A stretch of 63,500 bases of DNA, filler included, from Folioceros fuciformis (Eukaryota), in NCBI GenBank assembly GCA_049999805.1. It is 3 parts of 3 records of this genome, joined end to end, with 100 filler letters (N's around TTAATTAATTAA, not from the genome) between each part and the next. Parts side by side here need not be neighbours in the genome. Positions count along the whole stretch, not along the records: positions 17,864 to 32,036 come from JBNGIO010003127.1; 2 more parts are not named here. One strand, 5' to 3'. Numbering within the stretch: the stretch's first letter is position 1; the number at the start of each line of letters is the position of its first letter. Below the pieces are notes generated by a model, which searched no databases, was not told where the DNA came from, and saw only the letters and a list, made by a program, of their open reading frames with translations. Shown piece by piece: positions 7,359 to 59,104 of the stretch. A program made the translations under genes and the position numbers.

Positions 7359-7574
7359 TAGTGGAAATTTAGGGCACGTTTCGTCTAGCCCTAAATTATA
7401 TTATTATACAACTAGCTACTTAGGGCACGGTTGAGTTACTAGTCACTAGTCGTAACCCGTCATAGACGGTCACCACCCATAGATAAGCGGTGAGACAGTT
7501 CGTCACATAAACCTTTTAAACATTCTGCCTCCGGCGCTATAATTTAATCTTACACAATCCTTGTAAATTCTCTA
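7359..7574 (+). repeat. 5' LTR of element A (216 bp)
   Basis: Direct repeat of 13215-13431; about 9 substitutions and 1 indel by hand alignment. Contains a short hairpin TTTAGGGC...GCCCTAAA. Confidence 0.95.
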
Positions 7575-8617
7575 TGGTATCAAAGCTCGCATCTTCAAGC
7601 TCCGTAGGAGTGAGCATGTCAGAATGTTGAATAACGAATAGGCTATTTGCAAAGTAGGCATGCTGCCTTGTGGAGAGGATGGTTAGCACGTATTGCTTTT
7701 TTCTGACACAAAAACTTACAATGTCCAGTGGTATGGTGAGAAGTGTCAAAACACCTCAGCCTACAAATGCGTGCCTACAATAACAGAAAATTGCACAACT
7801 TAGAGTTATGTCTCTCATGCATGGAAACAACATGGCCTAGATGTCAAAATCACAGAAGACGTAGAAATGACTCCCAATTTAGGCCTCACCCTGAATGGAG
7901 GGTTTCTCAGTTTCAAACTGAATCGTCTCTGTCTCTGCTTGTGTTCCAGTTAGGTCAAAAAAAGATCATGATCCTCGGCATAATAATACAGGGCCAAGGG
8001 GATTCATTACAGCCCAAGCTCGATCAATAATCCTGGAAAATTCTGCTAGTAAAGTAGAGAGTCAAGTCTGTCTCATTCATGAGATTATATGCACTCAGAA
8101 TACCACCAAAAGGAGTGTTCAACCAACCTCCTACAGAATTCACATCGTGTCCTCTTTGTGGGATAAATTTGTCTACAATAAGAGATGACATGGCTAGTAG
8201 CATCGAAATGGAGATGCTCAGGCTCTAAGCCTCATGTGGCCTAGTTCCCCTGGTCGTATGTTGCAGGAGAGACTTGAGAGAGAGGCACAATTGGTTGAAT
8301 ACTTGTGAGGTCTAAGTGCAAAAACCTCACATGCAATCAATGAACAAGAAAATGAAAATGTGTCAGAAAGTGCAAACTCGCCTCTTCCTGACTATGATAA
8401 TATAGTGAACAAGGCTATTGATCCTGAAAGCTCAACCACCCAGTACACCACACCTGGGTTTACCTTCCACCCTGGAATTATCTTTGATCCAAGCCTGACC
8501 ACGCAGACCAACATTCCTGCAATTAGGATGTTCTGGTGGTGGAGGTGGCGGAGGTGCTAGTGGTGGTGGCAGAGCAGGAGGTGGCGGTGAGGAGGGTTTC
8601 CTCAAAACCAGCCACCA

Positions 8618-11600: not shown

Positions 11601-13000
11601 GAAGATGGCAACAGACAGAATTGTGGGCAAGTACAAAGCAAGGTTGGTTGCCAGGGGTTTCAGCCAAGTCCTTGGACTAGACTTTCATGAAACCTTTGCA
11701 CCTGTGGCAAAATTCCAGACATTGCGCACCATCTTCACCCTGACAATACAACTCGATTGGGAGTTGCACATGATGGACGTGAAGACTACATTTCTTCATG
11801 GAAAGCTTGAGGAGGAAATCGTCATGCTTCAGCCACCAGGCTATGTTGAAAAAGGGAAAGAACACAAGGTTTGCAGGTTAGTAAAGACCATTTATGGACT
11901 TAAACAAAGTCCCTGTGCATGGAACACACGAATTCATGACTTCCTTGTTAATTAGAAGTTTTTGAGGAGCATTTTAGATGTGAGTCTTTACACTAAACAA
12001 GAAGGCATGGAGTACATCTACATAGTCATATACGTAGATGATCTGTTTATTGCTGCAAGTAGCACTCAAGCATTAGAACAACACTTAAACGAGAATTCAA
12101 AATGTCAGATCTCGGTGTCCTCGAATATTGTCTAGGTTTTCATGTAGAAAGAAACAAACAGAAGAGAACACTTTCCATACATCAGAGGAAGTATGTAAAT
12201 GACTGTCTGAGGAAGTTCGGACTCAAGGATGCGAAGTCATCCTCGACACCACTTCCGACAGGCACAAAATTGTGCAAGGCAATGTCATCAATGACAGATG
12301 TAGAAAAGCACGAGATGTCAGGAACTCCATACAGGAATGCGGTTGGGACCATTATCTATTTGAGCAATGTGAGTAGACTAGACGTGTCGTACGCAGTGAG
12401 CAACGTGTCCCAATTTTTGGAAATCTCGGCAAGGAACACTGGACTGCTGTCAAATGGATCTTCCGATATCTTAAGGGGATAGTCGGGTATGGAATTATGT
12501 ACAATGGCAACTCAACACAGAACCATAAGCTGCAGTTAGAAGCATATGGAGATGCAGACTATGCAGGAGACCACGACAGCAGAAAGTCTGTCTCAAGACA
12601 TGTGCTTACCTTGGCAGATGGCCCAGTGAGCTAGGGTAGCCGGAAGCAACCTACCGTTATATTGTCGACCAATGAATCTGAATATAGGGTTTTGACGATG
12701 GCAGCCAAGGACATCATATGGCAGCGAGCAATTCTTAAAGAACTCAATCAGACACAGACAGAAGCCACTCGCCTGAACTGTGAGTCAAGGAGCAATCGCC
12801 CTTGCTCAAAATCCGGTATTTCACAGTCGAACCAAGCATGTCGCTATAGAATATCACTTCAACAAATTGTCTTAGAATACGTTCCTACACATAATAATCT
12901 TGCAGATATTTTGACAAAACCTTTGCCCAAAGATCTGCACAATAGACATCTGGCTAGGCTAAACATCCTAGATGTGGAAAGTATGCATAGGAAGACTTAG
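8618..13000 (+). pseudogene. gag-pol of element A with multiple stops and frameshifts
   Basis: gag KDRFNGSDFDIWVMRMK; zinc knuckle CHWCGIPGHWERDC; protease WYLDSG; integrase LVHTDICGP and LRSDNGGEF; RT CKWVFK...KARLVARGFSQ, YGLKQS, YVDD; RNase H ADILTK. Confidence 0.95.
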
Positions 13001-13214
13001 CCAAAAGGGTTGAAGTAGAAGCGCAGTCGCATATCTACATGAAAAAGGCACTTTCCTTGCTTGAAGGCTGTACAAGATAGAACACTGGAAAGCTATGGAC
13101 TTCATCAACAAAAGAAGCAGTCAAAGGATCAACGAAGTGAAGCCGCCGTCCACAAACACCGGAATTAAAATCAATGACCTAACTCAATGCCGCGACGTAG
13201 CTGTTGAGTGGGAG

Positions 13215-13431
13215 TAGTGGAAATTTAGGGCACGTTTTGTCTAGCCCTAAATTATATTATTATACAACTAGCTACTTAGGGCACGATTGAGTTACTAGTC
13301 ATTAGTCATGACTCGTCATAGACGGTCACGACCCATAGATAAGCGGTGTGACAGTTCGTCACATAAAACTTTTAAACATTCTGCCTCCGGCGCTATAATT
13401 TTAATCTTACACAATCCTTGTAAATTCTCTA
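13215..13431 (+). repeat. 3' LTR of element A (217 bp)
   Basis: Direct repeat of 7359-7574, preceded by the polypurine tract. Confidence 0.95.
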
Positions 13432-16400
13432 TTGTTGTGGAGCAATGGAAACCCTTTGCCAAAAAAAAGTTGCAATACACGAAAGAGGAAGACCAAGACC
13501 ATTTTCCTATTATGAACCGCCTTCACGCAAGACTTAAAAAACTTGGAAAATGCTGTGCATATGGCCCTATGGGTCTCAATGGCAAGGGGGATAGAGGTGT
13601 AACCAGCCTGTAGAGAGATGTACTTGTGAACCTTTATTGATATGCTCCCCTTCGCCCCCCCAACCGAGGGAGTCGAGGACAACATGCTTGTAGACCGCGA
13701 CGTGTGTGGCGTCAGTTACAACCACATCAACAATAGAAACTTGTTCTTCCTAGATGAGGTAAAGGTCAACTCGAAGAGAAACACCATTACGTAGAGTGTA
13801 TGGGCATTCCTTGAAGGGCAGAAAGCCAGCCTTCCTGGCCAACGAAAACATGACATTTCGCGCGGCATCACGCGCAACAATGTGTTGACCCCCAACTAGG
13901 CAACAAACAAAATGAGTACCAAAGTTGTTTAGTGGCGCCCCGCAACTACAAGAGGAGAGAGCAGGCCAAAGGTTGGACCAAACCAGGGCAAAACTGCATC
14001 ACAATAAAGAATGTTAGTGTGATTCAGAAAGCCTGAATGCTAGGTTGAGCCAAGAGCCTGCACCCTTTCCTTAGTACGAACGAAGCCGCGCACGAACAAG
14101 CTTGGGGATAGAAGAATTTTGAAATGAAATGTACATTGAAATATATGAGAAGATTACTCTATGAAGCATATCATCGATGCTTCCTTGCATTATTGTGATC
14201 AAAGGAAAAATTATTAGAATATCAAATGAGAGAAAATCTCCAATAACAATTAACATGGAATGCAAAGTGGTAACTCTAATTCTTGTATGAAATAAAGAAT
14301 GTGGAAGAGAAAAAGTTGGAATAAAAGAAAAAAAAGTTGTACTCTATATTTATGTAGTGTTGTACTTATTTTCTATCCAAGTATGGGGAAGTTCCTTAAA
14401 CTTGCTTCAGGTGAATATGCAAACTTTATTGCAGTTTAGAGAAGGTGAATATTTTATTTAAAAGAGATGGGGAAATCCCATCTACCCCAATAAGAGGAAA
14501 AGACCCATATAGGGTCAAGAACCAAGAGAGAGCTAGTCCTATCGTGAAAGCAGCAGCTAAGGCCTTTCGACCACTTGACAAATGCAGGTTTCCTTAATCT
14601 TTGAAAGACTACTTGGTAGGATCGGGTAAGGTAAAGTGCTAGGCGTCCTCGACGTTTGGGGTTCCAACATGCTAGTCAACAATATAAACGGAAGGAAGCT
14701 AGACTTCACTAGGGGTTAGGCCATCAGACGCGGGTACCCCCAACGCTCGTGTGTCGCTCCGTCCTTAGCCCTTAGCCCCTATGTCGAAAGTTCCTACTAT
14801 AAGAGGGGCTAGAGCATGCGTAATGAGAACTTATCGGCACATGCAACGGCAGGATTCCAACCCAAGACCCTTTGGCACCATTGTACAAACCTACACAAGT
14901 GAGAATGTAGGATGTAATGCAAAGGGAGAGTACTATGGGAAGCAATTTGAAACCAAGGCTATAGATGAAGGCTAGAGCATTGGAAGATGGAGGAAGCATC
15001 TTTACGAAACTTGTCGATCACGATCCGGGGGGGTGCAATAAGTGGAGGGCAAAGCATGAAGACCACAACATGTCTAGCAACTATGTCAAGGGCTAGTGGG
15101 AGGAAACGAAGGGTGAGTGAAGGCCACGGGAGGATGGACTTGCCCAAGTTTATTTGTTTTGCAGGGCAGTTGGCTTTTCGAAACCTCCATGATTTTCAGC
15201 GCTAGGCTGCTAAACCTAACATCCAACTCCACTGGGTTTACAAGCGTCAGTGAGCTTACTCCAAATTTTGCCCTAGTTGAGGAGTGTTACTGGTAGCTGT
15301 AGCTTATCAGCAAGTTAGCCTAAGCATGATCTTGCAAGATCGTGCTTAGGCTCACTTGCTGTTAGCACACCTCATACTTCACAGGTGCCTTCTCACATTG
15401 CATTTGGCAATTGCAATAAGATGCCACCCTGGATTGGGGAACAATGATGTTCTAGGCCTATAGCCATTAGCGCAACAAGCTCCTAAAGACTAAACTTGCC
15501 AATTTTGACAAGGCATGCCATAGTTACCTCATCACCTACTTGGTGCACCTCTGGTCAACTTACGGCCTACTCACGTGGGACGAGTTCATTGAATCTACAC
15601 AAGCCTTTGAACTTGTGTACTTGGGAGGACTTGAACAAGGAACATAGCGATGAGGCTCGACAGCCAGCTCTGAAAAGAGGAGGAAGGAATCCTAGCACCT
15701 ACGACATTGTGCTAGTGCGTTGTCCAGTGCCTACAACTGTTCGAAGGAAGTTACATTCATGCTCCCTTATTATTGTTACTATTGGGCACAAATCCGATTA
15801 TGAGCCATGTTAGATGGTCCACCGGGTGGCTTTGCCAGGACCACCATTTCATGCATGTTGATGGGGTTATCGGATCCAAGAACTAGAACACGTCAAGAAC
15901 TCAACTAAAAGAAAAGTGAATGAAAGAACAAAAATATTGGTTCGACGATGGGTTGGTCGGCTAACGAAGTTGGACTCCATTTATTTGGCATCTACACTTG
16001 TTCATTTCTTCATGTGAAGAGAAAACTTTTTATATCCCAATCCCGTACAACATTCTATCCTATGCGATGAGATACAAATGCGTTAAAGCATTTGTTCTCA
16101 TAGACTCTCATGAGCATTTGATCTTTGTAGATTCTCCTCTCAAGTCAATTAGACCACAATGTAGGTGGTTAGACTAGCATTTGTACACAATTGAGATTTC
16201 ATACTGAATGAGATTTTGATAATTTTCAAAATAATTGAATCATCAATATCATAAGGTCAAAGCATCATAGGCTTTAATCTCATGATACATTGGGGAGCTC
16301 GAGCATGCAAGTTACTAGTGAAAATAGTAATTAATTGATTGAGTGGAAAAGGAAATCCTTGTATACAAATTGTCTATTAAATTAATTATCAAGTAGTTAG

Positions 16401-17168: not shown

Positions 17169-17559
17169 TGTTTTTGATAGAAAGTTATGTTTCATGAAAT
17201 TTAGGGTAGCATTTATTGTATACCGTACTATTGCATGCCAATTTCTAGTGATATTGTTAAACACCTACCATTGTAGGTTATTGATTCATATGAATGTTCC
17301 TTTTTTTTTTAATTTTCTAAAAATATGATTTTTTACAAGTGCATAAACAATATAAAAAACATTCATATCTTAAATACCTCTACAACAAAGCTAATTCATA
17401 GGTTAATAACTATAATTATAAAGTTTGACCATTTTTCCTCTTTCAACATTCGGAAGGCTTTAGACTAATATGCCAATGACAAAAGTACATACTAGGAGTC
17501 TACTAATGCATGCAAGTGCCTATTTGGAGGCGAGTTGGTCATGCAAATGCATGTCAAGA

Positions 17560-17763
17560 GCCCACTAGTGTGACAGCATACTAGATAGTGCCCACTTGTG
17601 TGGCAGCATACTAGATAGTGCCCACTAGTGTGGCAGCATATTAGATAGTGCCCACTAGTGTGGCAACATACTAGATAGTGCCCACTAGTGTGGCAGCATA
17701 CTAGATAGTGCCCACTAGTGTGGCAGCATACTAGATAGTGCCCACTAGTGTGGCAGCATACTA
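17560..17763. repeat. 30-bp tandem minisatellite (GCCCACTAGTGTGGCAGCATACTAGATAGT), ~7 copies, running into the gap
   Basis: Near-identical contiguous units without spacers. Confidence 0.95.
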
Positions 17764-17863
17764 NNNNNNNNNNNNNNNNNNNNNNNNNNNNNNNNNNNNN
17801 NNNNNNNTTAATTAATTAANNNNNNNNNNNNNNNNNNNNNNNNNNNNNNNNNNNNNNNNNNNN
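17764..17863. other. Assembly gap (100 bp) with artificial TTAATTAATTAA linker
   Basis: N44-TTAATTAATTAA-N44, identical in structure to 32037-32136. Confidence 0.97.
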
Positions 17864-18579: not shown

Positions 18580-20785
18580 TGTTAAACCCCATGGGTTATT
18601 ATAACCACAGCCACTAGTTACATATTTACCTAGATTAGGGTTAGATGTATATTGCAGGGTTATTCATAGTAACACTTAGGGTTTAGTATTTACGGTCAAC
18701 TCATTGTGAACATTTTGTTATTATCATCATTATTATTGATTGTCAAGTTTATTTTTTCTCTACTAGTTTTGACATGGTATCAGAGCCCCAAGGTTTTAAT
18801 ATGTGATTTTGATCTAACATTGTCAATGCTAGTAGTGCGAGGGCTGATTGGGCACAAAATCCAGTAACCATAAATTTATGGCACATGGTTCATGTGCCCA
18901 ATATACCTTCTTTACCTGTATTACAATTGTCAGTTAACATTCATTATGGAAAAGGAAAAAAAAATTATTGCCATTTTTCTGGTTATTTAATTTCCGCTGC
19001 ACTCTTAGAGAGATATATAGAAAATATCTACGGTGCAAAATGCCTCGTAGGTACAGAAATGGGGAGCCAGGCATGAGAAGTTTCTTCAACTTCATCACTA
19101 ATAGGTATATCAGGGAAAGGGATCGCCAGTGGCACTCAACCCAAATTCCCACAAATCCCTCAGTGACAACAACTTCAGAAGTCCAGGCTTCCACGTGTCA
19201 CAAGCCCCCAACCCGTCCAGGCTATCCTAACACAAAGGCTAGATTCAAGATATCACAACAGGAGAGAAGGAACTCACAAAACCCACAAGAGAATCAAGAG
19301 CAACCATTTAGGCACAGGGACCATGCAGTGGAAGCAACTAGAACTGCTCTAGAACAACTCTGGCATGCCTGTCTCGGTCATGCTAACAAGGATAAGTTGG
19401 TTAAGATGTCCAACCTGGAATGTTTCTGGGAACCCCTTCCCAAGTATTTCAAAGACCTTCCCCTTTGTGATGCATGCATAGTAGCCAAGCAAAAAGAGTT
19501 ACCTTTTTCTGCTACGTTGGCTCAAAGGTCTTTTGCTATACTTGACCTAATACATGCAGACATATCTGGGAAGATACATGTCCAATCCTTAGGAGGTTCC
19601 CTCTACTACCTCACACTCACTAACGATTTAGTCGGTATTCTTGGACATACCCACTCAAGAGAAAATCAAACACTTTTCTACTATTCAAAGAGTGGGTCAC
19701 AATGATTCAAAGACAAATTGGGACTCACCTTTGCTGCTTAAGATCTGATAATAGCACAGAGTTTGTGAATGGTGCTTTTGATGAGTTCTTGCAGCTCAGG
19801 GTACGATCCGCCAACTCAGTATTCCGTATACTCAACAACAAAATGGGGTAGCAGAACGACGCAACCAAACTCTGCTTAGTATGACCCAGAGTATGCTGGC
19901 TTGGTCAAGCCTTAGCAAAGCCTGCTTGGCAGAGGCAATCATCACTGCCACTTACATCCTCAACCGGCTACTCACTTCTGCAGTTCTTGACCAAACTCCC
20001 TTTGAGATGATATGGAAACACAAACCTAGTTTGCCTCACCTTCGAGTGTTTGGATCACCTGCCTATGCTTACATTCATGAAGAACAACGCAGGAAGCTTG
20101 AGGATAGGGCTAGACCTCTTATGTTTGTGGGTTATGGTGAGGAGACCAAAGCTTATAAACTCTATGACCCTCACTTCAGGTCTTCCATATTTGCTCATGT
20201 AGAGGAAAAAAACTTTCAGGACTCCCATTTTGAAGAGCAGAATGAACAGGTAGTGTTTTTTTGGGCGAAGATGCGAGTGAATTGGCATAGTATGGAAATA
20301 ATATTTGGGTATTTATACCCAAGTCTCCTTGGCCCTTGGTGTTTTGATAGGATGGAGTGACATGACTGGGGAGAAGTGTGCGCAAGAGTGTCCTTGGCCC
20401 TTGGTGGTTCGAGGGTACTTAGGTGTCTATATATGCACCCCTCCCCCTCGGGGAAATAAGAAATGGGAAGTGGGGGTAGGAGCTTAGGAAGTGCGGACTT
20501 AGGCAAAAAGAACGGGGTGTTGAACTGGGCGACGGTAGCTGGTCGGGCGACCGTCGTGGAAGGGGAACCGGCGGTAGCCCAACCGGCGGCATAAAACCCT
20601 AGAGAGAGACAGGGAGAACTTGGGCAGTAATCGGGTCAGGAGCGTCCGTGAGAATGAGAGTAACCGCGGGCGCGACGACGGTCAAGAGCGGAACAGGCAC
20701 TAGGTGGCGGCGCGGAGTAGGGTGACAGGCGACCGCAGGTGCAGGAGGGCAACGGTGTTCGGGGCGTGGAAGGAGATCAAGCAGG

Positions 20786-22833
20786 ATGAGGTCTCGACCA
20801 GAGTTGTTGCCAGGAGTACTGGTGCTGGAGCAGGAGGAGGGAGAACCGCCTGTCCCGAAGATCGATGTGCTCCTGTGGCCCAACATGGAGCACTGGAGGA
20901 CCAAAGCCGGAGGGCTGGTCGAAGAACTAGGCCTCGGGTTCATGAACCAGAGGTGGAATTATGCAGCACCACTGCTGGTCAGGGAGTGCGCCCTGAAGAT
21001 GAGGAAGCCCATCTGAGAGGAGGGAATCCATGGCAGACCCCAGGAATGCAATATGGAGCTGGTAAGACAGGTGTATGGCCGCGATTAACAGGAAGAGGGG
21101 GGATTGGTGCTAGAGTCCTTGAAGAAGCGTGGTGGCACAGCAAACGCCGAGGTGCTGTTCAAACCTGGCACCAAGAAGGAAGCGAATGGCTGGCTGATCC
21201 GTGATATGGCCAACCCCCAGCTGATGGGTTTGGCCAGGTGGTTCCTGTGCTTCCTGCAGGTTTGTAAGCAGGATTATCTGTCTCATCAGATGCTCCTGTT
21301 TGTGCATGAAGTCGTAAAAGGGAGCAAGGTGGATTGGGGGAAAATCCTGTATGCCAGGATGGACGAGGAGAGGCAAAATCTGACTTTGGCCCCAACCTTC
21401 GATGATCTCCCCCTTCCTAGTTCACATCTACTGCTATGCTAATCTTGTGTCTGAACTGGAGGTCATGGTCTCATTGCATATGTGGAGACCATGAAAGGGA
21501 GGTGAAGTGAAAGGCCACTGATCCAGTGGGAGCCAACTCCAACAGCTGGGAGTCGGGTGGTGCGGACAGTTCGGAGGAGGAGACTTCCACCATGCAGAAG
21601 AGGAAGGCTGGGGTAGGGAAGAAGACTCGCCAAGAAGAGGAGGGCCAGCCGCCAGATTGCCAGAGGAGGAAGTGGATCAGCACCACAGGAGGCAGCCCTA
21701 GAGCAGGCTGGGCAGGAGCAGGGGCTACTCAGGAACCTACAGCTAAGGCGCCAGCAGACCAAGAGCCGGCGGAGCAGGAGCCGGGCGAAGAGGAACCAGG
21801 CGCTCCCCAGGAGCAGATGCCGGAGATGGAAGTGGTCCCTTCTGAGGTGAAGGGTGGATTAGGGCACGTTCTTGAGCAGGAAGTCTTTCCAGAATGGGAG
21901 GATGTTTTTAGAAAAATTCCTCAGGAAGATAGGCTGCAGATAGAGGAGCTCGAAAAGTTACGAGCACTGTTGAGAAGGCGGATAACCCAGAGGGGAATGG
22001 CTCCGGTGGGGTCGCAGGAGGTGAATTTGCCAGAACTAACCTCAGCCATGGTGCAAGCACAAACGGACGTGTTGGACCAGGTGGCCAGGGCATTGACCTG
22101 GCTAAGCAGGCAGGCGGAGAAGGAGGCCGAGGCCCGAAGTAGGGCGGCAGAGGCAAGAGGAAAGGAGTCCAAAGCCTGGAGACAGCTGGCGGGGTCTGAA
22201 ACAGCATGATGGCTCTTGGAAGAAGAGTAGTGGGTCCTGAGCGAGGGCAAGGCACAAGCAGAAGAAGAGGCATGCTAGGCCAAGGCAGAGATCCAGGCGC
22301 TGAAGGAGCAACAACAGTCGTTCCTAGCTCAGGTGAGGGAAGCCCATGAGACTAATTTGGAAATACAGCGGGAAGTGGCTAAGGCTCAGGAGCAGGAGCA
22401 GGAGATGGCTGCGATGGAGCAAATCCAAGAGCTGGCCGACAAGTACAAACATGCTCAGGACGAGACCAGGGAGCGAGTAAAGGGAAAGGGTAAGGCTGGG
22501 CGTAGTAGCCAGATGGCGGCACCGGTAGCCAAAGGGGCTACCGGTAGTCGAGCAACAATTTCGGTAGCTGAAGCGGCTACTAGTAGTCTTGCGACACCTG
22601 AGGTAGCCGAAGGGGCTACCAGTAAAGGAGGGATGACGCCGGTAGCCGAGGCCACAACCCCGGTAGCAGAAGAAGTGATGACGAAGGCGCCTGACCCAGG
22701 CGTTCCAGGAGGGCGACTCGCACCAGGCGGACCAAGCCGGAAGCAACAGTATCTAAAGGGATGGAGGACACTCAGGTACCCCAGGAGAACAGGGGACATG
22801 CCGCCCGAAGTAGCCCAAGGGAGGAAGGGGTAA
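20786..22833 (+). pseudogene. ORF1 of the 4.8-kb insert: helical N-terminal domain, low-complexity linker and long coiled coil
   Basis: ORFs 20786-21016, 21104-21442, 21526-22209 and 22333-22833 join through in-frame stops (several CAG>TAG or CGA>TGA type) and one frameshift. Contains the motif GSKVDWGKILYARM, E/Q/A-rich heptads and PVAxGAT repeats. Confidence 0.7.
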
Positions 22834-23213
22834 GCACCTCCCTTATGATAGAGGGTCAGATTATGCTGCAGTATGAGGAGGAGGCCTCTTATGTGCCGGG
22901 CCTCAATGTGGAAGGGGTCCGAGTTCGGAAGCTGTTTTTGTATGTACGTATGGGCACAAGAGGGACGCGGGGCTACGGCCTGCAACTGAGGACTTGCAAG
23001 GGCATCTACTACTACCGCTGGCGGGTATGGGGGTTGCCTCATTGCTATTCCGAGGCAGTCCTGGAGGAACTGACGGAGGAGGAGGCGCAGTAGTGGGTTG
23101 AGCGGGAGCCTGTCCCCATACTCAGCAATCGGCGATGGAGGAAGGAGAGGCATTCCCTGCGACGGGACCCACCTATGCCGCCACCAGCAAGGGCCCACGA
23201 GCAGCAGGAGTGA
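22761..23213 (+). pseudogene. ORF2 of the 4.8-kb insert (~150 aa, one internal stop), unknown protein
   Basis: ORF 22761-23093 continues in frame past a TAG to TGA at 23211-23213. The core looks beta-rich (VRVRKLFLYVRMG...YGLQLRTCKGIYYYRWRVW). Confidence 0.45.
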
Positions 23214-24280
23214 AGTAGAATTCCTGTGGGAGGACCTACCTGACCAATAGCGGGGTAGGAGGGCCAGAGGAGGACCAATAGGGGGAAGGTCGCGACAACT
23301 AGGAGGGAGGCACCGACCTAGGGTAATTGCAGTCTAGACTAGTTTCCTTTTAGATTGTTTTGCTTGGACCTAAGCTGCTTAGAATTTAAGAGCGCTGTCT
23401 GACCCCTAACAGACTTTATGGCGGAAAGACCGCCACTACCGTGTACAAGATGCCAGCTTGGGGCCTCGGGAAAATTAGCGAGAAACCAGCCCGACATTCC
23501 GACCTTGCAGAAGCCTAGCGATGGCCGTTACTGGACGGGAGGTCTAGGCAATCGAGCGCACATAGTGTTCTGAGGGTGTGGGCGCAAGTGGTGGATGCTC
23601 TGTAACCACGAACTAGGAACGAATCGGGAGGAGAGACCTCGCCAAGTGGGAGACGAGTTACGCAGCTATTCCTGTGACGGTTACGTGGGGTGGTGAGGAG
23701 ACCGGAGGTCGAATCCACAAGTTCGGAGTGGAAGTGGATACCCCTTTCCTTAGCCTTCGATGACCTACCATTCCTTCAATTTCAGAGAGAAGGGGAGGCC
23801 CTGGACGGGCGAGTTGGAGAGGAACGCCGAGAGTCGCGAGTGGATTGAGAAACGGGAGTGTGTGAGTGAGAGCGCTGAGGAACGCGCATTGATAAAGTAA
23901 GAAGGCGGTGCTGGTGACTGCTGTTGTGGGAGTTGTGAGTGTGACGATGGTAGAAGGAAAAAGATGTGTTCCTAAATGACTGTAGCGACTGTATGTGAGC
24001 TTGTGGTATGACAAAGCCGAGCTGGGGATCGTAAAACCGGGACGGTGAGTGCGTACACAGCGGAGATGGGGTCACGGCTGATCTGTGAACGAATGGAGTA
24101 AGAGGGAGTCGGAAGCAAGACGTGACTATGCGCTGATGGGATGCTGTGAAGTGAAGAAGTGGTATGTATGTGTGCGTTAGACCAAAACGCAGGGACGCGT
24201 GAGTGACTGTGGGAAGCCTAGCCTGAGATTGTGAGTAGAATGTGGTAGTGGGTAAGAGTGCGCTGACTGATTAAGCCACC

Positions 24281-24304
24281 GTGTGTGTGTGTGTGTGTGT
24301 GTGT
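24281..24304. repeat. (GT)n microsatellite inside the 4.8-kb insert
   Basis: Run of ~12 GT units. Confidence 0.9.
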
Positions 24305-27300
24305 ATGCGTGGGTGTGTCGTCGGGCGCAGCAAAGCATAAGGGTTCCTGAGGAACCTAGGAAGAGCTAGGGGCGGACACTAGTAGAGCGCTGGTAGGTGC
24401 GAGTGTGTATGAGTTATGTGCCCTCGAGTCCTGGGAGGGGTAGTGAGTAGATGGGAAAGGGGGAGTCGTGTGAGAGGAGTAGTCGCGAGTAAGAGAGAGA
24501 GAGGATCGAGGTGTGTCACCTCCGTCAGGAGGCATAAGCCGGAAAAATAAGTCGTTGGGTAAATTAGAGAGAGAGAGAGTGGGTAGAGAGAGATAAGAGA
24601 GAGAAAGAGAGAGAGTGGGACCCACCAAGGTAGCCAGTTGGGTGACCCTGGTGGAAGGGCAACGGAAGTGGCTGTGCTTAGCGGTAGTCGCGGGGGCGAC
24701 GGGGTAGCCGAGGGACGGTAGCTGGGGTGGCTCGCTACCCGATAGTCGAGTAGACTGTCAGTTAGTCTAGGGCTGAGGTAGTTGAGGGGTAACGGTGGTA
24801 GCCGAACCAAGAGGGGGCCAAGGAACCGATAGGCGAGTGGTGGACGAAGAAGCCTGGCCTTGGGTAGTAACTGACTTTGTTAGAAAAACCCATGTTATTT
24901 AACACAACTCATTCCCTTGGGATCGAATCCCAGGTGCTATAACGATATAGAGGGTTTGCGTGGACCTCGTTGCACCTCCGGGTGCAATATTTTCCCCCAC
25001 AGCTCACAGTGTCACATTTAAGGGATTGCAGGTTCCTGCTTCCATAGCTACCTCTTCCTCAGCGTCTTCTCCTCTGGACCCTAATGATTTTGATGATTTC
25101 CCCTCTGAATATCCTCAAGATGCTGCATATGAACCCCCTCCTACTCTTCACTTTGATCAACCAGCTGGCGGTTCAGGGGTGGAAATGCAGCTCAATCACC
25201 AAGATCAGTGGCAACAAATACATATTTGCCTGCACAACTTGTCCCTGTGCCTCCACAAGCAACACAATAGTTATCTACAGCACCTGGACAGTCTACACTA
25301 GAGGAGGACAAGGACCAGGATGATGATCCTGCAATTTCTATACCTGATGTTGATGTGGCGGACTTTCCAATAGCTGAGGAACATGAGCACGAGGATAGCA
25401 CACATGCAGACACACTGTCTATACCATTTGAAACTGAAGACACTACCATGCACTTGACGAGCCAGAAACTGTTAAGCAACTAGCTGTTGAATTTGAACCT
25501 ATTGTTGAAGAGCGCAAGTACCCCAGCAGATCTCGTCCAAGGGAAAATTGGAACACAAGACCTGATGAACCTGAGGACTTCAAGATTCCTCTATCTGCTC
25601 GACTTTGTGAAGCTCTCTCCACCAGCACCATCCACCCAGCAGAACCTCGCACATATCAGGAGGCAATAATTGGTTAGGATAAACATCATTGGATTCCTTC
25701 AATTCAAGATGAATATAACTAAGTGACTAAGAATGGAATTTCGGAGCTCTGTCCTTTACCTGCTGGGAGGAGGACGGTTAGCTGCAAGTGGGTATTTAAA
25801 CACAAGCTGAATGCTCAAGGAGAAATAGCACGATACAAGTCACGTTTGGTTGCTTGGGGTTTCTCCCAAGTTGCAGGTGTAGACTTCAACGAGACGTTGA
25901 GCCTTGTTGTCAAGACACAGTCAATCAAAGTGATGTTAGCTCTAGTACCTGCCTGAGATTGGGATCTTGAACAAATGGATGTTTCAACTGCCTTCTTGTA
26001 CGGAGAGCTTGAAGAAGACATATACATGGATCAGCCTGAGGGTTTCGTGGATCCTGAACGTCTAGATTGGGTTTGCAGGCTCAAGAAAACTCTATACGGC
26101 TTGAAGCAAAGTGCTCGTGAATGGTACAAGTGTATAGACAAGTACCTCAAGTTGATAGGCTTCATCCAAAATCCAGCTGATGCCAACGTATACATATATT
26201 CCAAGGGAGGTTACTTGGTCATCCTAGCACTTTACATTGATGATGCTATACGAGCATCCAACAACAGAAAGCTGCTGGATTGGGTGAAGGTATGTTGCAC
26301 AAGCAGTACGACATGAAAGACATTGGACAACTTACCTTTATCCTTGGCGTTCAGCTGCTGAGAGATAGACCCAAGAGAACACTTGTCCTGCACCATACCA
26401 AGGACATTGAGGAAACTCTTCGACATTTCAACCTGCAGGATGCTAAGCCTATAAGCACACCAGGAAGTGTTGGGGTTAAACTCTCTACTCAATAGAGTCC
26501 ACAAGACGACTATGAACGTGTAGCTATGAGGCAGATTCCTTACCGGCACATTGTGGATTGTCTCAACTACATTAGCTGCTGGACAAGGCCGGACATCGAG
26601 CACTCCGTTAGTGCAGTTTCTCAATACCTTGAGAATCTAGGCCCTGAACACTGGATGGCAGTTAAAAGAACCCTCCGATACCTTAAAGGCGCATCTACCT
26701 TTGGACTATGCTTCCAGGGCACTAACAATGCCATCACTCTTGAGGGATACGCAAATGCTGACTAGGCTACAGACCTAGATCAATGCAAGAGCATCTCTGC
26801 GTATTGCTTCATGCTATCTGGTGCAGCTGTTAACTGGAGTTCGAAGAAATAAGCATCCATAGCCCTTTCATCCATGGAGGTCGAATTTAAAGCTTTTACG
26901 GACTCAGCCAAGGAGGCTGAATGGGAGCGCACTTTTCCAGCTGGCTTGGGTTTTCCGCAGTCAATTCCTACAACCATCTTCTGTGACAACATGTCTACTA
27001 TCGCTTTGGTTGGGAATCCTCGTTTTCATGAGCACACCAAACACATAGAAATTCACCATCACTATGTCAGACATTCCGTGGAGCAGAAGGTGATCAAAAT
27101 CCAGCACATATCAACGGAGCTGAATACAAATGACGTGCTTATTGTTAGAGTAGGTTAAATACATTAACTTACTTACAGGTTTAGGGCTAGACAGTTGGAA
27201 ACCCTAACCATCGCCATGTCTTGGTGACGTGACCGAGAACGCTGAACAACAACTTTTCTTTTTCTCACGCCGTGACACCTGTCTGATCTGTCTCATGGTA

Positions 27301-28558: not shown

Positions 28559-30583
28559 ATTTATTTTATTTTTTCCGCGAAGAAAACATCTGATTATTCG
28601 CAGTTTAGGCTACACCAACGGCATATCAATTGCGTCCACAATTGAATACCTTAGCCTGGACTCAAAATCTAAGCTGTAGAAGCGAGCAAAGCTGAACTGC
28701 CCTATGATCAAGAGCCACCCACCCCTTATGAGACTTATCTGCCCCACGGGTAGGAGTACTCCCATTGGTCATTGACCCGTAGGAAGCCTGCAAGTATCCA
28801 CTCTCTCCGCCTAAACTTAGAGTGAGTGGACGTTTGAATACTTTCCGTGACCACAAGTACCTGCTCCCAGATGCGCCATAGCAAAGCTTTCCTAGCGACC
28901 GGCTCACTCCCACCATATACCATTGCTGTCCAGTTTTGCCACAAGGAAAACAGTGATAGGGACCAAACCACTCCCCACCATTGGAATTTGAGAAGTGGCC
29001 CCCCTACCTATCTGTCCAGCCCAAATAAGGCATCTTGCTCAGTAACCAAGCTGGCTCTCTCTAGGAGAAGTCTCTGTAGCCACCTACCGACTTCGTTCCC
29101 AATACCCTGCGCATACTCGCAATGAAAGAAAATATGTTGGCTTTTATGCGGAGCGCCAACGTTGCATAGCCTGCAGCATTCCTCCCCCGTGGCCACCAAT
29201 AGCCCGTCCCATCGGTCTGCGTTAGGCAAGCAAGCTTGGAAAAAACACCAGATGGTAACCCTCACCTTAGGGGGGATCCCTAGGGTCGACCACAAGAGTT
29301 TGATAGTTGCCTTTTGCCGACGCTGGGAGAGCTGCAACCTAGGAGCCAGTCGACTTCGCCGAGGACCTTTTTGCGCTCGCACCAATCGGAGGTACACGGT
29401 TGCCGACGAAAAATTGAAGAGTGACTTCAAAGTGGCTTGCTTAATTCCTGCACTCCCAGGCCACATATATAGGTCGGAGCGTATCACTAACTCCCAATTC
29501 TCCTTCAAGCGAAACCAACATCTTACAGGACGCTGTTGCATGACCTGTTTCCGGTTGCCTTGCTCTTCCTGGGTAAGCCAAAAACTGGATCGTCTAGCCC
29601 TGTACAATATGGTAATCCCTCTGAGGGTGACTCCACCCATCGCGCCTTCAGCTCTACCTTTTTCCTCTAGCAGCCCTTCTGTGTTCAGCATCCTATAAGA
29701 TAGGGTTCCTTCCTCATCTATCCTTGATGTCACTAGCACCGCTCTGTCAAAATCTGGGAGGGGCTCGTCCTGCTCCTGGTCGGAGCCACCTGCTCTATTG
29801 TCCATGGGGTAAGCTCCCCACATATTGATGCCAACCTGAGCTTCCTATAGCAGTGCTAGCTTCACATCCTCGGCCATCCCTTCCTGGAGCCAAGCAAGCA
29901 TAAGTCTCACGTGTCGAATAGGGATCCCAAACTCTTCCCGCGTCTCCTCCGCTGATTTCCAACCAGCCTCTCTATAGTTCCACAGGTGTCCGAGCTGCAC
30001 AATGCCGCTTCTACTAGTGGAACCAAAGATTTGAGACCGGTTCACTCGGGAAAGGAAATTCTGAGACCACAGCCCCTTAAAACCTTGGAGAGGGAGCCCC
30101 AGCACATCGTCCCTATTCCTAGGCTTGGCATAGATAAGAAAGGTTTTCACCTCCAGGAAACTGCGCCAGATTGAAGCAAAAAGAGGGGAGCAGTTCCTGG
30201 TATCTAACAGGGGCCTATTCTCCAGGAGGTTGTCCATAGACCTCCGCCCCCGGGCGACCGCTTGAGAAAGCTGCAAGTGTTGGGTTAACCAGCTTTTCCA
30301 AGGGTATCCTGTTGGTCCAGCTGCCTTCAGCACCCATTGCGCATGTAGTCCAGGAGAAGAATTGCAAGCACATCTATTTCTAGCAGCCGTACAGACCAAG
30401 CGTTGTACATGAATTGACCTATAAGAGGTCGAGGGCAAGGCCATCCTTTTGTCAGAGGACGAGGAGGACGTGGAGGTCGAGGAGCATTCCGACCCCAACA
30501 GTTTGGTAGCACCAGGCCAAAGCCTCCATGCGGGTTCTATGGCTTGCAAAACCATACATAGGAAGTATGTCGAAAACCACTGT
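28559..30583 (-). mobile_element. 5'-truncated L1-type LINE (3' part of ORF2) inserted in the gag of element C
   Basis: T-rich tail on the + strand at 28560-28574. zf-RVT-like motif LW...IPPKVRVTIW...CRLC...HIFFHC in ORF 29008-29823. Probable TSD TAGGAGAA at 28550-28557 and 30584-30591. Confidence 0.85.
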
Positions 30584-32036
30584 TAGGAGAAAGTGGCCCA
30601 TCTTTTGGCCAATTAGCTGTTACGATGAACAAATACAGCAGAGCATTCCTTACCCAAGTTGTGAAGACTCCACAAGCGTTTTCTGATGACACTAAATTAC
30701 AGTACTCTTGTAATGTGGTCTCATGCTATGCCAACCAGCCAACACATGCTTGGTACATCGACAATGGTGCCTCACAACACATGACTCCTCACTTGGCCTA
30801 CTTTACAGAAATGAGGAGCTCCACACCAGCAGAGTACATGTGCTTAGGAGACGATACCAAGCACCACATTGAAGGTCAAGGGACCATTAGACTTGACCTT
30901 ATGCCATCTCATCACATGGAGATACTTGATGTGTTATATGTCCCGGGACTTACTAAGAATCTGGTCTCGGTGAGGAAAATCGATGAGTATGGATGCTATA
31001 TATGCTTTGGCGGAGGCAAATGTGTTGTAGAGTCGAGTGTAGGGACTCTACTTGCCACTAGACATCTGCAAAATGACGATCTGTATCACCTCGATCTGCA
31101 AATAGCAAAGGCCAATGTCGTTCAGTCATCATCCAAGTTTGCATAGCCATCTCAAACATATTTATGGCACCTCCGCCTTGGCCATACTAAGTATCGGAAG
31201 CTAGTCCATATGTACAAACACAACATGGTGGACGGGCTCACCTTAGATAAGCTTGATGAGTTGGAGTATGCAAGTCGTGTGTGCTTGGTAAACATAAACG
31301 AACTCCCTTTCCTACAGATGTCTCTACCAGGGCCACAGAGGCACTTGGATTAGTCCACAGCAATATGTGTGGGCCTATGCCCAAATCTCTTGGCGGGAAG
31401 GAATATTTTCTTACCTTTATTGACGACTCCACTCAATTTTGTGTAGTCTATGTCCTCCGCCACAAGTTTGACATGTATTCATGCTTCCTAGAGTATAAAG
31501 CTTGGGCTGAATTACAAACTGGTTCCAAACTCAAGATGCTTCGCACCGACAATGGTGGTGAGTTTCTCTCTGGAGAGTTCAATGCCTTCTGTACACAACA
31601 AGGCATTGTCAGACAGCTTACAAATGCATACACACCCCAACAAAATGGGGTAGCTAAACACAAAAATGCTGACCAGGAGACGTAAGCTTCGAGCATGCTT
31701 CAAAATGCAACCCTGCCAAGAACCTATTGGGCAAAGGCTGTGGCCTATGTCACTTATATTCAGAACCGCATTGCTCATAGTAGTGTTCCAGAGAAAACTC
31801 CATACAAGCTCTAGACGTGAAGGAGACCAAGTGTAGCTCATATGCGAGCTTTCGGCTCCATAGTGTACGTTTGTAAGAAGTTCGAACCTAAGTCGAATGA
31901 ATGCATTTTTGTGGGCTTCACCGAAGGCATTAAGGGCTACAAGCTGCTGAATCGACAAACACAGAAGACGACACACTCAAGAGACATGATGTTCGTCGAA
32001 GGAGTTGAGCCAAACCTCACAGTGGGAGACGTAGCC

Positions 32037-32136
32037 NNNNNNNNNNNNNNNNNNNNNNNNNNNNNNNNNNNNNNNNNNNNTTAATTAATTAANNNNNNNN
32101 NNNNNNNNNNNNNNNNNNNNNNNNNNNNNNNNNNNN
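32037..32136. other. Assembly gap (100 bp) with artificial TTAATTAATTAA linker
   Basis: N44-TTAATTAATTAA-N44. Confidence 0.97.
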
Positions 32137-33945
32137 AGTCTACTTTGTTCTTCCTGGAAGAGGGCCCCTATCACCTCGTCTAAGGTGATAGTTACTTGTC
32201 TCCCAGCAGCACCAGCAGCCATAGCCTGTCTGAGGGGAACATTGTGTGCAGATACGAAATTCTGGTAACTGGGTGGCAGGCTAGTGAGCAATTGAGCTAT
32301 CACATCCACCTCATCCATAACAGTACCAAGAGAAGCAAGTTGGGCTCGAAGGTGTCTAAGTTTGCTGGTATGAGCAAGAACTTTGTCCCCTTCTCGCATT
32401 TTCAGTCCATAAAACTCCATGCGTAAGGCACAAAGAGTAAGGACATTATTAACCTTATATTGTTTTTCCAATTGTGACCAGATCTCACTGGCCTTGGTAA
32501 GAAATTCAATTTGAGGAATAAGATCTTCAGTCAAGCCAGAGGGCAATAGCTATGCTGTTAGCATGGGCCCATTTATCCTTGTCTCCTTGAAGAGCAGTGG
32601 AAGATGGTTCAGGAAGAGAACCATCCACAATGCTCCAAACTCCTCTAGCCAGCAGCGTGGATTTCATCCGCACTCTCCACACCTCGTATTTGTGACCAGT
32701 AAACCTGTCCTTTTCTTTTAATTCAGATGTAAAGATAGGGGTATATGATGCAGAAGATGATGGTGGTGGATTGACTGTAGCCATGGTTGTAGGTTGGCCT
32801 ACGTTCCAGATAGTTTGGATGAAATCCACCGATTCGTTGATCCTGAGGTTAGAGAGTGATTCGGCTAAATCATCTAGCCAGTCGTCCATACATGGTTGAC
32901 TAACGAAATGATTTATTTATGCAGGGATAAAGGAAAGGGCACTAATAAAGGTCATAAAAAAAAAAAAGGCATGCTCACGGCGAAACGACAGCCTGAATAG
33001 GTATTTTCCATAAAAACCCTAAATTAAAATGCCCTTTCGCATAAACACCGGTTCACGCGAGAAACCCTAACGGTTTACTTCCGATTTTTCAGGAATGGGC
33101 AGCAGGGTGGGGAGGAACAATTCCATTGCTGGCTGTGCCATGAAAAATGGCACCCACTGTGAGTCCAGAATGATTGAGGCGCTGAAATTCTTGAACAAGA
33201 AGATGCAAGCGCCCACTAATTTGCGAAATTTTGGCAAAGATTTGATCAATCCTAGTAAGGATTCTCCGAGTCTGAAGTTTATCATCAACACCTTGCATAT
33301 GAATTACATAGGCCAGTTGGTCACATAAATTTCCAATGTGTCGGTCTAAGAAATCACGGTCAGACTCTATACCAATGCCAAAATTATGAAAATTCAGATC
33401 AGCAGTAGTCTGCCGTGATTCAAATACACTAGATTGATTTGCTTCCCTTGTCTGTAAAGGTCTAGGACGACCACGCCTACGGGAAGGCATTCTAATGTAG
33501 ATCACAAGCAAGACAATACTTCATCTGTTAAAGATAAAAGATCTGATGCATGATCAGTAAATTAATTTTTCGTTTCGTTGTATAGAAACTTCATTTCTTC
33601 TTCCTGCTTGGCAGCGGAAGCACTAAAAAAAAAAAAAAAAACCGACATCAATCCATAATTTAGAGGCTAGGATTGATTACAATCAGAATCAACCGAGAGA
33701 TCAGTATAAGTGGCTTGGCCATAAGAATTAATAGCCATAGCCATTTTTTTATTTTATAGCTCTGATACCATGTTAAAAATGGAAGAGCAGGAAAAAGAGA
33801 ATAAAGTTAAAATATGATAATTAAAAATGAGGCTCAAAAGTGTTTTAAATACAATAAGTGATGGCATTTCACTAAACGGTATCCCCTATAATAAACTAGG
33901 TTAAATAATAGCGAGTTAATGTTTATTCAGCCATTATTCCCAACA
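32137..33945 (-). mobile_element. 5' part of Ty1/copia element D (LTR, PBS, upstream ORF, gag), cut by the gap
   Basis: Minus-strand LTR TGTTGGGAAT...TTTTAACA at 33945-33771; PBS at 33770-33759. gag at 32889-32137 (KEKDRFTGHKYEVWRVRMK...LLTSLPPSY...GALFQEE) with one frameshift near 32535. Confidence 0.9.
33089..33490 (-). CDS. Arg-rich upstream ORF of element D (133 aa), between PBS and gag
   Basis: Intact frame MPSRRRGRPRPLQ..., with an amphipathic or coiled-coil-like C-terminal half (ILTRIDQIFAKISQISGRLHLLVQEFQRL). Confidence 0.55.
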   Translation of the reverse strand: MPSRRRGRPRPLQTREANQSSVFESRQTTADLNFHNFGIGIESDRDFLDRHIGNLCDQLAYVIHMQGVDDKLQTRRILTRIDQIFAKISQISGRLHLLVQEFQRLNHSGLTVGAIFHGTASNGIVPPHPAAHS

Positions 33946-34665
33946 AAAATGGCTCTATTAAGCTGGCTGGTGGAGCTGATGTCGCTGCTGCCCTCACTGT
34001 TGAGGACATCATTGACGCACTCTATCAGGAGGAACACACCCGTACCCTTTCCGATGCTACTCCTAAGAACAAAGCCGAGAGAGTGTTAGTTGTAAATTCT
34101 CGCCTTTTTAAAGGCAAGGCAAAATTCAAGGGAGAAAATACCTACCTAGAGGTTCTGGTCAGCGAATTGATTCCGCCAGCTCCTTTATTAAAAGACCAGG
34201 TTCGTGCAATTGGTGCGGCACCCTTGGCCATTGGGCAAGAGAATGCCGTAAAAAGAAGGCAGGTGAGCCACAACGACAATCGAGAGCAACCGCTGCAACA
34301 GTCAAGGAGAAAAATTCTGAAGAATCAAAGGCGCTAGTAAAGATCCTCACTGCCTGCCTTTCCAGTTCGACTAATGACTACAGCAGCTGGTACCTGGATT
34401 CCAGTGCCATGACCCACATCTAAAGGACATGGAGTTGGTTACTACCCTTAAGCTTGGTCATGGCCATGACAACGTGTTGCTCGGAGATGAACAAAGCACA
34501 ACCAGCTTGCGCATAGAAGGTAGAGGTATTTGCGTCCTTAGGCTGCATGATTGTACGGATCTTAAATTAGATGATATGCTGTATGTACCAGAAATGACTA
34601 AAAATTTCATGTCCATGAGTCAGCTACTATGTTTACGTACCTTTTGTATGCGTGTTGATTCTAAT
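33946..34665 (+). mobile_element. Ty1/copia element E fragment (gag C-terminus and protease); apparent host of element D
   Basis: LTVEDIIDALYQEE; zinc knuckle CNWCGTLGHWAREC at ~34205-34246; WYLDSSA and DMLYVPEMTKNF. Confidence 0.85.
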
Positions 34666-56451: not shown

Positions 56452-56599
56452 CACGCCCTGCGAAAATCTTACACCAAACATACATCAAAATTCAAAAGAC
56501 CGAGCACAATACCGTCAGCGCAAGTTGAGCACCAAAAGAGCCAAGCTACGATCCGAAGCAGACCTCCACTGCTCCACCTATTGCCTTAACCCCGATCTA

Positions 56600-57056: not shown

Positions 57057-59104
<2,048 letters not shown>

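Follow-up and report, generated by a model that had tools for sequence, protein, structure and literature searches.

That plant long terminal repeats (LTRs) can reach 4-5 kb, and that solo LTRs can be abundant, is shown by the large retrotransposon derivatives (LARDs) of the Triticeae, and the 5S RNA gene housed in the LTR of Cassandra terminal-repeat retrotransposons in miniature (TRIMs) illustrates that an independently transcribed gene can sit in a plant LTR. Protein genes within an LTR, or overlapping one, are found in retroviruses (sag of mouse mammary tumour virus, MMTV, in U3; nef of human immunodeficiency virus, HIV, overlapping U3). Among plant gypsy elements, extra open reading frames (ORFs) are widespread. 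The non-chromovirus Ty3/gypsy lineages (Ogre/Tat/Athila) combine LTRs of up to ~5 kb with such extra ORFs and repeat-rich non-coding stretches (PMC6317226); the sunflower Athila carries a 3' additional ORF (aORF) with a Transposase_32 domain, 'related to ORF1 of Athila' (PMC11728184), and in Retand a POL-3'LTR region 2.9-6.6 kb long holds tandem repeats and ORFs in antisense orientation that encode Transposase_28 domains and coiled coils of Smc type (PMC11963269). Domains of these types are the hallmark of extra ORFs in Athila, Retand and Ogre (PMC6317226; PMC11728184; PMC11963269). Here we analyse 63,500 nucleotides of DNA from Folioceros fuciformis (GenBank assembly GCA_049999805.1; three parts of three records joined end to end, hereafter the window), in which a 4,804-bp insert (20198-25001) interrupts a Ty1/copia retrotransposon and carries a decayed protein-coding gene. 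We consider the chances about even that this insert is the solo LTR of a giant-LTR, gypsy-type element with an accessory-gene cassette inside the LTR.

Read directly from the sequence, the insert is a discrete unit with TG...CA ends. It opens at 20198 with TGTAGAGGAAAA (longer reading TGTAGAGGAAAAAAAC) and closes at 25001 with ...TTTTCCCCCACA (longer reading ...CAATATTTTCCCCCACA), and its 5' terminal inverted repeat (TIR; TGTAGAGGAAAA, 20198-20209, + strand) matches the reverse complement of the 3' TIR (24990-25001) at 10 of 12 positions. The left flank terminates in ...TTTGCTCA, the right flank picks up as GCTCACAG, and the target-site duplication (TSD) is exactly 5 bp long (GCTCA at 20193-20197 and at 25002-25006; the flanking 6-mers differ). 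The surrounding host Ty1/copia element (18775-26765, + strand) was recognised by its Pfam domains and its primer binding site (PBS), TGGTATCAGAGC (18775-18786, + strand), which stands at a canonical LTR-end/PBS junction (CA|TGGTATCAGAGC at 18773/18775). The host integrase occupies 18938-20197 (+ strand), with a GAG-pre-integrase zinc-finger region upstream (gag_pre-integrs, E 2.1e-08), and the reverse transcriptase starts from ~25723 on the same strand (RVT_2, 7.5e-18 and 3.7e-28). Since the SH3-like domain of the integrase (SH3_retrovirus, PF25597, E 1.9e-21) is split by the insert at profile position 56 of 73, the two flanks are halves of one gene and the insert is nested in the copia element.

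Public reads of the source organism (coded runs X1-X3, one sample) provided contigs that were compared with a 6.8-kb stretch around the insert (window 19198-26001), taking contig pieces at ≥80% identity. Among the joints listed, related copia contigs connect 20194 to 25010 with 6 letters between them (one contig each in X1 and X2), the spacing that an empty site should have, and two further joints likewise skip the insert (20194->25085 and 20194->25101); the precise insertion is thus confirmed by paralogous empty sites. The 3' junction is spanned by an 825-nt contig without a single difference (24895-25719). The insertion and its boundaries are real, and the initial annotation, which had described a 4.8-kb insert with TG...CA ends, a 10/12 inverted match and a perfect GCTCA duplication, is borne out by sequence and empty-site contigs alike.

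The combination of TG..CA ends and a 5-bp TSD without internal repeats had been taken as the footprint of a solo LTR, and ends, TSD and repeat searches agree on this point. When compared by blastn with the whole window the insert matched only itself; the repeat finder reported no inverted pairs inside it and no direct repeat above 51 nt (that one being a 39-nt tandem repeat within the coding sequence), and neither terminus (16-17 nt) recurs inside at ≤3 mismatches, so that the claimed absence of a second copy of either end holds. Equally, nine insert ORFs gave no match to gag, pol, integrase or transposase families in Pfam (rve and DDE included), as had been stated from the sequence. The claimed lack of a PBS also stands, apart from one 2-mismatch look-alike (23597-23608, - strand) which we rejected, as it is preceded by CG rather than CA and such sites occur at chance level (7 found against 5.8 expected in the window). 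No tRNA gene or Rfam family was found in or near the insert, and GGGATCGAATCCC, considered as a tRNA T-arm, was set aside as merely a hairpin.

The insert might alternatively be what is left of a complete non-autonomous element (LARD- or TRIM-like, with the order LTR-PBS-ORF-polypurine tract-LTR), its LTRs having become unrecognisable by deletion or decay. Two diverged LTRs around the ORFs, the arrangement that had been named in advance as fatal to the solo-LTR proposal, were looked for by self-comparison and no LTR pair was found. Such a remnant could draw on a weak direct similarity (between the two 800-nt end segments, the best direct local alignment scored 35, shuffles having a mean of 23 and a maximum of 32), which under looser scoring takes the form of a 125-nt match (20450-20578 against 24557-24672; score 25.5, shuffles averaging 17 and reaching at most 28), 80% alike over a 35-nt core, and on an (AG)25 run followed by TG at 24616, superficially a polypurine tract (PPT)/LTR junction. 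However, the similarity was judged not significant against the shuffles and is not collinear with the termini; no PBS stands next to a CA inside the unit, and, as the gene is still readable, equally old LTRs should be ~85-90% alike and easily found. The two similar stretches (a purine tract followed by GGTAGC...GGTGGAAGGGSAAC), which flank the gene on both sides, were for want of significance rejected as hidden LTRs. Two direct LTRs flanking an internal domain with PBS and PPT, as in LARD and TRIM elements, are not present in the insert, and the lack of an internal LTR pair, PBS, PPT-LTR junction and gag-pol is what a solo LTR would show. We give the decayed remnant very little credence: the insert is not a two-LTR element, however decayed. 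With no LTR pair, second terminus, gag/pol or convincing PBS, a single LTR is the sole standard retroelement product with such ends.

What sets this unit apart is its coding content, and here the ~2.4 kb of decayed coding sequence reported initially was recovered as a gene of ~800 codons (20786-23213, + strand) with a homologous N-terminal domain. It runs from an ATG at 20786 to an end stop at 23211-23213 and has to be read through three frames: the first over 20786-21412 (stops at 21014 and 21086), the second over 21411-21494, the third over 21511-22833 (stops at 22207, 22228 and 22276), and the second again for the last piece (22695-23213, stop at 23091, end at 23211), all on the + strand. 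With at least six premature stops and at least three frame changes, this gene copy is dead. The break near 21410 is a frameshift and not an intron, as the family motif FLVH..N.L.E.E resumes past that point in another frame. From the 5' side, the gene comprises a conserved N-terminal domain defined by homology (20858-21361), an acidic/proline-rich linker followed by an E/K/Q/A-rich, coiled-coil-like stretch (21511-22500; from the translation, by inspection), a 39-nt tandem repeat (22523-22624, 2.6 copies, CGGTAGC in each unit) and a presumed C-terminal coding piece (22695-23213) that contains the segment of deepest contig coverage (22830-23056), each on the + strand. The initial division into ORF1 and ORF2 was right as to the coding content; one decayed gene is the better reading, because the liverwort homologues hold domain, acidic linker and coiled coil in a single protein.

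These homologues emerged from an exhaustive HMMER search of 1.84 billion representatives with the first 239 codons of the gene (stops as X), which returned seven proteins at E ≤0.001 (best E 1.1e-08; identity 27-38%). Six of the seven were looked up, and proved to be four hypothetical proteins of Riccia sorocarpa, one protein of Marchantia polymorpha and one from a read assembly; a profile search extended this set by six further Riccia paralogues alone. No Pfam domain is recorded for any of these proteins, and the Riccia relatives are multi-copy and lie on several chromosomes. A profile built from 13 relatives, with the window gene itself left out, was compared with all 190 six-frame pieces of 20000-25200, and it matched only the + strand at 20726-21013 (E 8.2e-07, profile positions 127-170) and, collinearly, at 21089-21439 (E 1.1e-11, profile positions 201-295). 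Judged by this similarity, the N-terminal domain is homologous to a multi-copy protein family of liverworts (Riccia, Marchantia), to which the family is so far confined. In the full-length relatives (573-682 amino acids) the domain is followed by an acidic serine-rich linker and then a long helix, and the window gene has the same order; in the Riccia relative P0002 the helix is modelled over ~115 residues (pLDDT ~90) at the place matching the coiled-coil-like stretch, the part for which the 13-relative profile gave no significant match in the window (E 0.21-0.75).

Wider searches yielded nothing further: 222 pattern stretches matched by the family alignment in a metagenome scan, and 10 matches in a viral contig scan, left no confirmed member, a word-index protein search with P0001 at near lengths gave no match among 803 candidates, and the profile retrieved from PDB sequences just low-complexity or coiled-coil noise (Cdc45, Smc3; E ≥0.03). 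For the last 170 codons no relatives were detected either, be it in the metagenome scan (591 pattern stretches, none confirmed), in the word-index search (near lengths only, no match among 154 candidates) or in the Atlas (solely scores <0.9, to unrelated small proteins).

As to the nature of the domain, neither the gene nor its relatives attains the Pfam gathering score of PF20167, PF03078, PF10536 or PF04195. A set of concordant leads (rather than proof) points to a weak resemblance to Transposase_32 (PF20167, in Pfam's description a 'putative plant transposon protein') and Athila ORF-1. The sub-threshold PF20167 match of the window protein is collinear and covers 113 of 177 profile positions (seen in one of the 14 family members scanned). 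In the ESM Atlas, the nearest clusters of a Riccia relative are by features PF03078 (ATHILA ORF-1) and PF20167 (0.89, 'under the bar') and by structure a Transposase_32 cluster (TM 0.67/0.60 over 200 residues, 'under the bar'). Finally, one Riccia relative bears the label 'aminotransferase-like plant mobile domain' in one source, a domain that the scan did not reproduce. Through this weak likeness, the finding ties a multi-copy liverwort protein family to the Transposase_32/Athila ORF-1 group of transposon proteins, a hint that gypsy-type elements with giant LTRs and extra ORFs are present outside seed plants as well.

The reads further show that the insert is no isolated sequence. The 6.8-kb stretch attracted 2344 contig pieces in X1, 2106 in X2 and 1042 in X3, with the host copia flanks taking a small share of the depth; in X1, 179 pieces were ≥99% identical and 1097 fell below 90%. 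The insert thus belongs to a diverged, well-represented family (80-100% identity), whose copies differ by small indels and in how many units of the 39-nt repeat they hold (as at joint 22552->22513, among others). We stress that contig depth does not equal copy number and is used only for the relative representation of coding parts and ends: in X1 the coding parts reached 880-1600 (N-terminal domain) and 4417 (22830-23056), against 643 and 2000 for the termini, the latter being the approximate depth of the terminal 130 bp (24873-25001), compared with 15-74 in the 900 bp before it (23965-24872).

These figures bear on the possibility that the insert is a solo LTR whose coding region is passively carried, being a gene of the host or part of another element that was captured by, or nested in, the LTR of one sub-lineage. 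The annotation of the Riccia and Marchantia relatives as ordinary (hypothetical) genes would suit such a capture, which is documented for plant LTR elements (PMC7264820), and so would the uneven depth along the unit and the few contigs that diverge near 23348. Against this, the coding parts are represented in the reads at least as well as the ends, whereas captured genes typically occur in one or few copies (PMC7264820); none of the 15 joints listed out of 96 skips the coding region, which is itself bounded by neither TSD nor terminal structure; and the presence of multiple Riccia relatives on several chromosomes fits a mobile-element origin. Base composition points the same way: the insert has a GC content of 55.7% and 61.5% purines on the + strand (46.9% and 51.0% elsewhere in the window), and the purine skew is equal in the 5' non-coding part (62.4%), the gene (61.5%) and the tail (61.3%), against 51% outside. 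Such uniformity speaks for one evolutionary entity and not for a recent foreign or secondary insertion. We therefore hold passive carriage to be unlikely, and the contig depth suggests, if weakly, that the gene is a family-wide feature rather than a one-off capture.

Two observations on the reads stand apart from this argument. Across 19198-26001, C>T differences are in large excess in the DNA run X3, with 435 of them compared to 189 G>A and 85 T>C, a pattern of bisulfite- or enzyme-converted libraries that could be usable for reading the methylation of the insert. A fourth run, X4 (guessed to be RNA), contributed 12 pieces, including a diverged version of the 3' end that gives way to unrelated sequence, from which nothing was concluded; a TGGTATC located 12 nt past its CA was considered as a PBS and does not fit a tRNA 3' end.

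The gene is embedded in non-coding DNA on both sides. Downstream lies a purine/G-rich tail of ~1.8 kb (23214-25001, + strand) with (GT)19 at 24281-24318 and (AG)25 at 24566-24615, in agreement with the GT/GA-rich non-coding DNA first described; it ends in a 3' terminal segment (24873-25001, + strand) that holds the hairpins GGGATCGAATCCC and TTGCACCTCCGGGTGCAA and the 3' TIR. Upstream, a TATA-like CTATATATGC (20426-20435, + strand), the single TATATA of the insert, is placed 350 nt before the ATG and may act as a promoter element, and a 26-nt motif (AGTSTCCTTGGCCCTTGGTG..) occurs in two copies (20322-20347 and 20387-20412; 88% alike, 65 nt apart). On the - strand, GGGTATAAATACCC (20299-20312), ~105 nt from the 20198 end, includes a perfect TATAAATA box with two ACCAAGGGCCAAGGA motifs upstream of it, and is a further putative promoter. 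The TATA-like sequence originally reported at ~20590 is present (CATAAAACCCTA, 20590-20601), yet it reads better as a telo-box (AAACCCTA, 20594-20601, + strand), and CTATATATGC and TATAAATA are the better TATA-like sites; telo-boxes as such are not above chance (one in the insert, against 3 + 3 on the two strands in the rest of the window).

The hexamer GGTAGY is conspicuous along the unit, with 18 occurrences on the + strand of the insert, where 4.0 +/- 1.9 would be expected and 200 dinucleotide shuffles gave at most 10; elsewhere in the window its density is 0.36 per kb. CGGTAGC is found 7 times in the insert against twice in the other 58.7 kb. The occurrences extend over 20249-24863 and are clustered upstream of the gene (20534-20573), in the 39-nt repeats (22524-22662) and in the tail (24629-24863, + strand); the hexamer may be a binding motif.

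Returning to the gene-bearing solo LTR, we reason that its origin would have involved the following steps. An LTR retrotransposon would have entered the integrase-coding region of the resident copia element, its integrase making the 5-bp GCTCA duplication, and LTR-LTR recombination would then have deleted the interior and left one LTR. Size, repeats and gene type point to the Ogre/Tat/Athila-like group, so that the parent would most likely have been a non-chromovirus Ty3/gypsy element. The initial annotation had likened the 3' end to Athila/Tat-type U5 ends; independently of this likeness, the protein domain points to the Athila/Tat/Ogre group. The cassette in its LTR would consist of promoter-like repeats with a TATA box, the ~800-codon gene and the 1.8-kb tail, and the encoded protein would join a Transposase_32/Athila-ORF1-like domain, by way of an acidic linker, to a coiled coil. 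The accessory region may have come into the LTR when the priming site (PPT or PBS) that defines the LTR edge shifted: had an upstream polypurine tract taken over plus-strand priming, the sequence up to the old edge would have become U3 and been copied to both ends, every new copy of the element would hold the gene twice, and every solo LTR would hold one copy. By analogy with the proteins of related extra ORFs, the product would assist the element in the nucleus, binding nucleic acid or chromatin. Regarding orientation, the uniform purine richness favours the + strand as the transcribed one; the - strand layout (ACCAAGGGCCAAGGA twice, then TATAAATA) would be a textbook U3-TATA-R-U5, the gene then being antisense, as in Retand, Grande and RIRE2.

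Several points weigh against this reading. TATA-like boxes on both strands make the orientation of the LTR ambiguous, the promoter-ORF-tail layout looks like a self-contained gene and is a poor fit to U3-R-U5, and no AATAAA occurs in the insert. A full-length parent was not found in the window, which holds one copy of the unit and no gypsy pol, and the uneven depth along the unit (15 to 4417) could reflect a mosaic of modules common to other families. The likeness to transposon proteins is itself slight: under lenient Pfam settings the window protein matches PF20167 at E 0.27, with 11.6 bits against a cut-off of 45, and our own models of the domain have a mean pLDDT of 49.3 for the window and 54.3 for a Riccia relative, the coiled coil alone being confident. 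Literature searches for a plant LTR with a whole protein gene (which reached little subscription literature and no supplements) gave retroviral cases only. In the published descriptions consulted, extra ORFs such as those of Athila, Retand and Ogre are all internal to the element (PMC6317226; PMC11728184; PMC11963269; PMC7264820), that is, between LTR and gag-pol, and the gene described here lies in a unit without LTR pair and gag-pol.

Some of these points would be at home in another explanation, namely that the insert is a stand-alone, non-autonomous unit whose short TGTRGRGGAAAA ends are recognised by an integrase or transposase supplied in trans, in the manner of Ginger elements but with a 5-bp TSD. 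Its two ends, each conforming to TGTNR, make up an inverted repeat of 12 nt, it resembles a self-contained gene cassette, and no full-length LTR element of its kind is present in the window; moreover, integrase-related DNA transposons with LTR-like TG..CA ends exist (GingerRoot, PMC6839031), and GingerRoot is, within plants, confined to bryophytes and lycophytes (PMC6839031), the sole relatives of the gene being liverwort proteins. Nevertheless, a TSD of 5 bp departs from that of GingerRoot (6 bp, rarely 7-8), Ginger2 (6 bp) and Ginger1 (4 bp), and the 12-nt match from GingerRoot TIRs of 100-150 bp (PMC6839031). No longer inverted repeat exists in the insert, the best inverted alignment of its two 800-nt end segments scoring 24, below the shuffle maximum of 31. 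A DDE/rve domain was not found in the insert ORFs (a non-autonomous copy could lack the transposase), thousands of contig pieces from a diverged family are more typical of copy-and-paste elements, and TG..CA with a 5-bp TSD is the standard signature of LTR retrotransposons. The initial annotation had offered both this integrase-mobilised TIR element and the giant LTR; the former is weakened by the Ginger TSD and TIR lengths and we find it improbable, and the latter is favoured, at about even chances. Should the unit indeed move alone with a 5-bp TSD, it would represent a new kind of integrase-dependent element.

If the favoured reading of a gene-bearing solo LTR is taken one step further, a plant LTR would have absorbed a cassette whose solo LTRs are potentially autonomous transcription units for the protein, a proposition that we advance tentatively and regard as possible rather than probable. 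Were it true, the family would keep supplying a helper (or anti-silencing) factor from solo LTRs after its coding interiors were lost, and candidate sites for the encoded protein to bind would be the GGTAGY clusters, which lie on both sides of the gene as well as within it. An LTR that holds a whole accessory gene would also change how such genes are counted and how they are expressed, each solo LTR being a gene copy with a promoter, and would amount to a natural experiment on the protein, in which solo LTRs express the gene without gag-pol.

Other features were noted in the remainder of the window. Besides the host PBS, two more exact initiator-tRNA PBS sites were noted (27295/27296, and 33759-33770 on the - strand); the one at 27296 directly follows ...GTCTCA, by which another LTR element begins ~2.3 kb past the insert and truncates or abuts the host copia. 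Positions 7359-13435 hold a fairly complete Ty1/copia element (LTRs ~220 bp and 95% alike; PBS with one mismatch at 7575; pol order Pol_BBD, integrase, SH3-like, RVT_2), more copia pieces lie at 30562-34713, and a long interspersed nuclear element (LINE) fragment (zf-RVT) at 29011-29844 on the - strand. A 30-nt tandem repeat of 7 copies (17527-17863) runs into two 44-N runs (17764-17807 and 17820-17863), which, like a second such pair (32037-32080 and 32093-32136), lie at joins between the parts of the window. An uninterrupted open frame of 786 codons within a G-rich stretch (48522-50879, + strand) has no Pfam match. Further downstream, a ~1.2-kb tandem array (59398-60660; periods 24 and 18 nt, with dozens of copies that are 60-86% alike) sits in a 495-codon open frame (59280-60764) and so encodes a repetitive motif of 8 or 6 residues, the sole Pfam match of this frame being a weak one to a phage gp5 trimerisation repeat. 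Array and a PAD_porph-like fragment are enclosed by a pair of ~640-bp direct repeats (56889-57527 and 62865-63500; 91% alike, ~6 kb apart, reaching the end of the window) with no gag-pol match, and the pair could have arisen by segmental duplication or be LTRs belonging to a non-autonomous element. Among the transposons, exon-like pieces of ordinary plant genes (an armadillo-repeat protein, a protein kinase, a Castor/Pollux-type channel, a CAAD-domain protein and NDUFB7) were seen at 2726-5952 (-), 38682-39125, 44984-45418, 53380-53805 (-) and 56032-56484 (-).

Set beside the described systems, the insert would, as an LTR, share with MMTV sag and HIV nef a coding sequence within the LTR, which is thus duplicated at both ends of the provirus, and it differs from them in that these belong to animal retroviruses and are short sense ORFs (0.6-1 kb); the analogy is one of layout and implies no homology. 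It departs from LARDs, whose LTRs are non-coding, and from Cassandra, with its small pol III RNA gene, by carrying a protein gene. Nested solo LTRs are ordinary, and a plant LTR with a complete protein gene would be the unusual feature. With GingerRoot, Ginger1 and Ginger2 the insert has in common the TG..CA-type termini, a size within their range (3.9-12.9 kb) and the carriage of gene fragments, as well as, for GingerRoot, the occurrence in bryophytes and lycophytes (PMC6839031), and it differs by the 5-bp TSD (6 bp in GingerRoot and Ginger2, 4 bp in Ginger1) and by the lack of a DDE domain. Its protein is comparable to the additional and extra ORF (aORF/eORF) proteins (Transposase_32, Athila ORF-1, Transposase_28, plant mobile domain) in pairing a plant-transposon-type domain with a coiled-coil or Smc-like part, next to repeat-rich non-coding DNA and possibly under its own promoter; unlike them, it has only a sub-threshold Pfam match, its clear relatives are liverwort proteins without Pfam domains, and it is not located between two LTRs. 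The closest overall likeness is to the solo LTRs of the giant-LTR Ogre/Tat/Athila elements, with which the insert shares TG..CA ends, a 5-bp TSD, a size near the ~5 kb maximum, tandem repeats, extended non-coding DNA and insertion into other retrotransposons (PMC6317226). The PBS/PPT and pol of its parent were not seen in the window; unlike those elements, in which extra ORFs are internal, it holds the whole ~2.4-kb gene in a single LTR-like unit.

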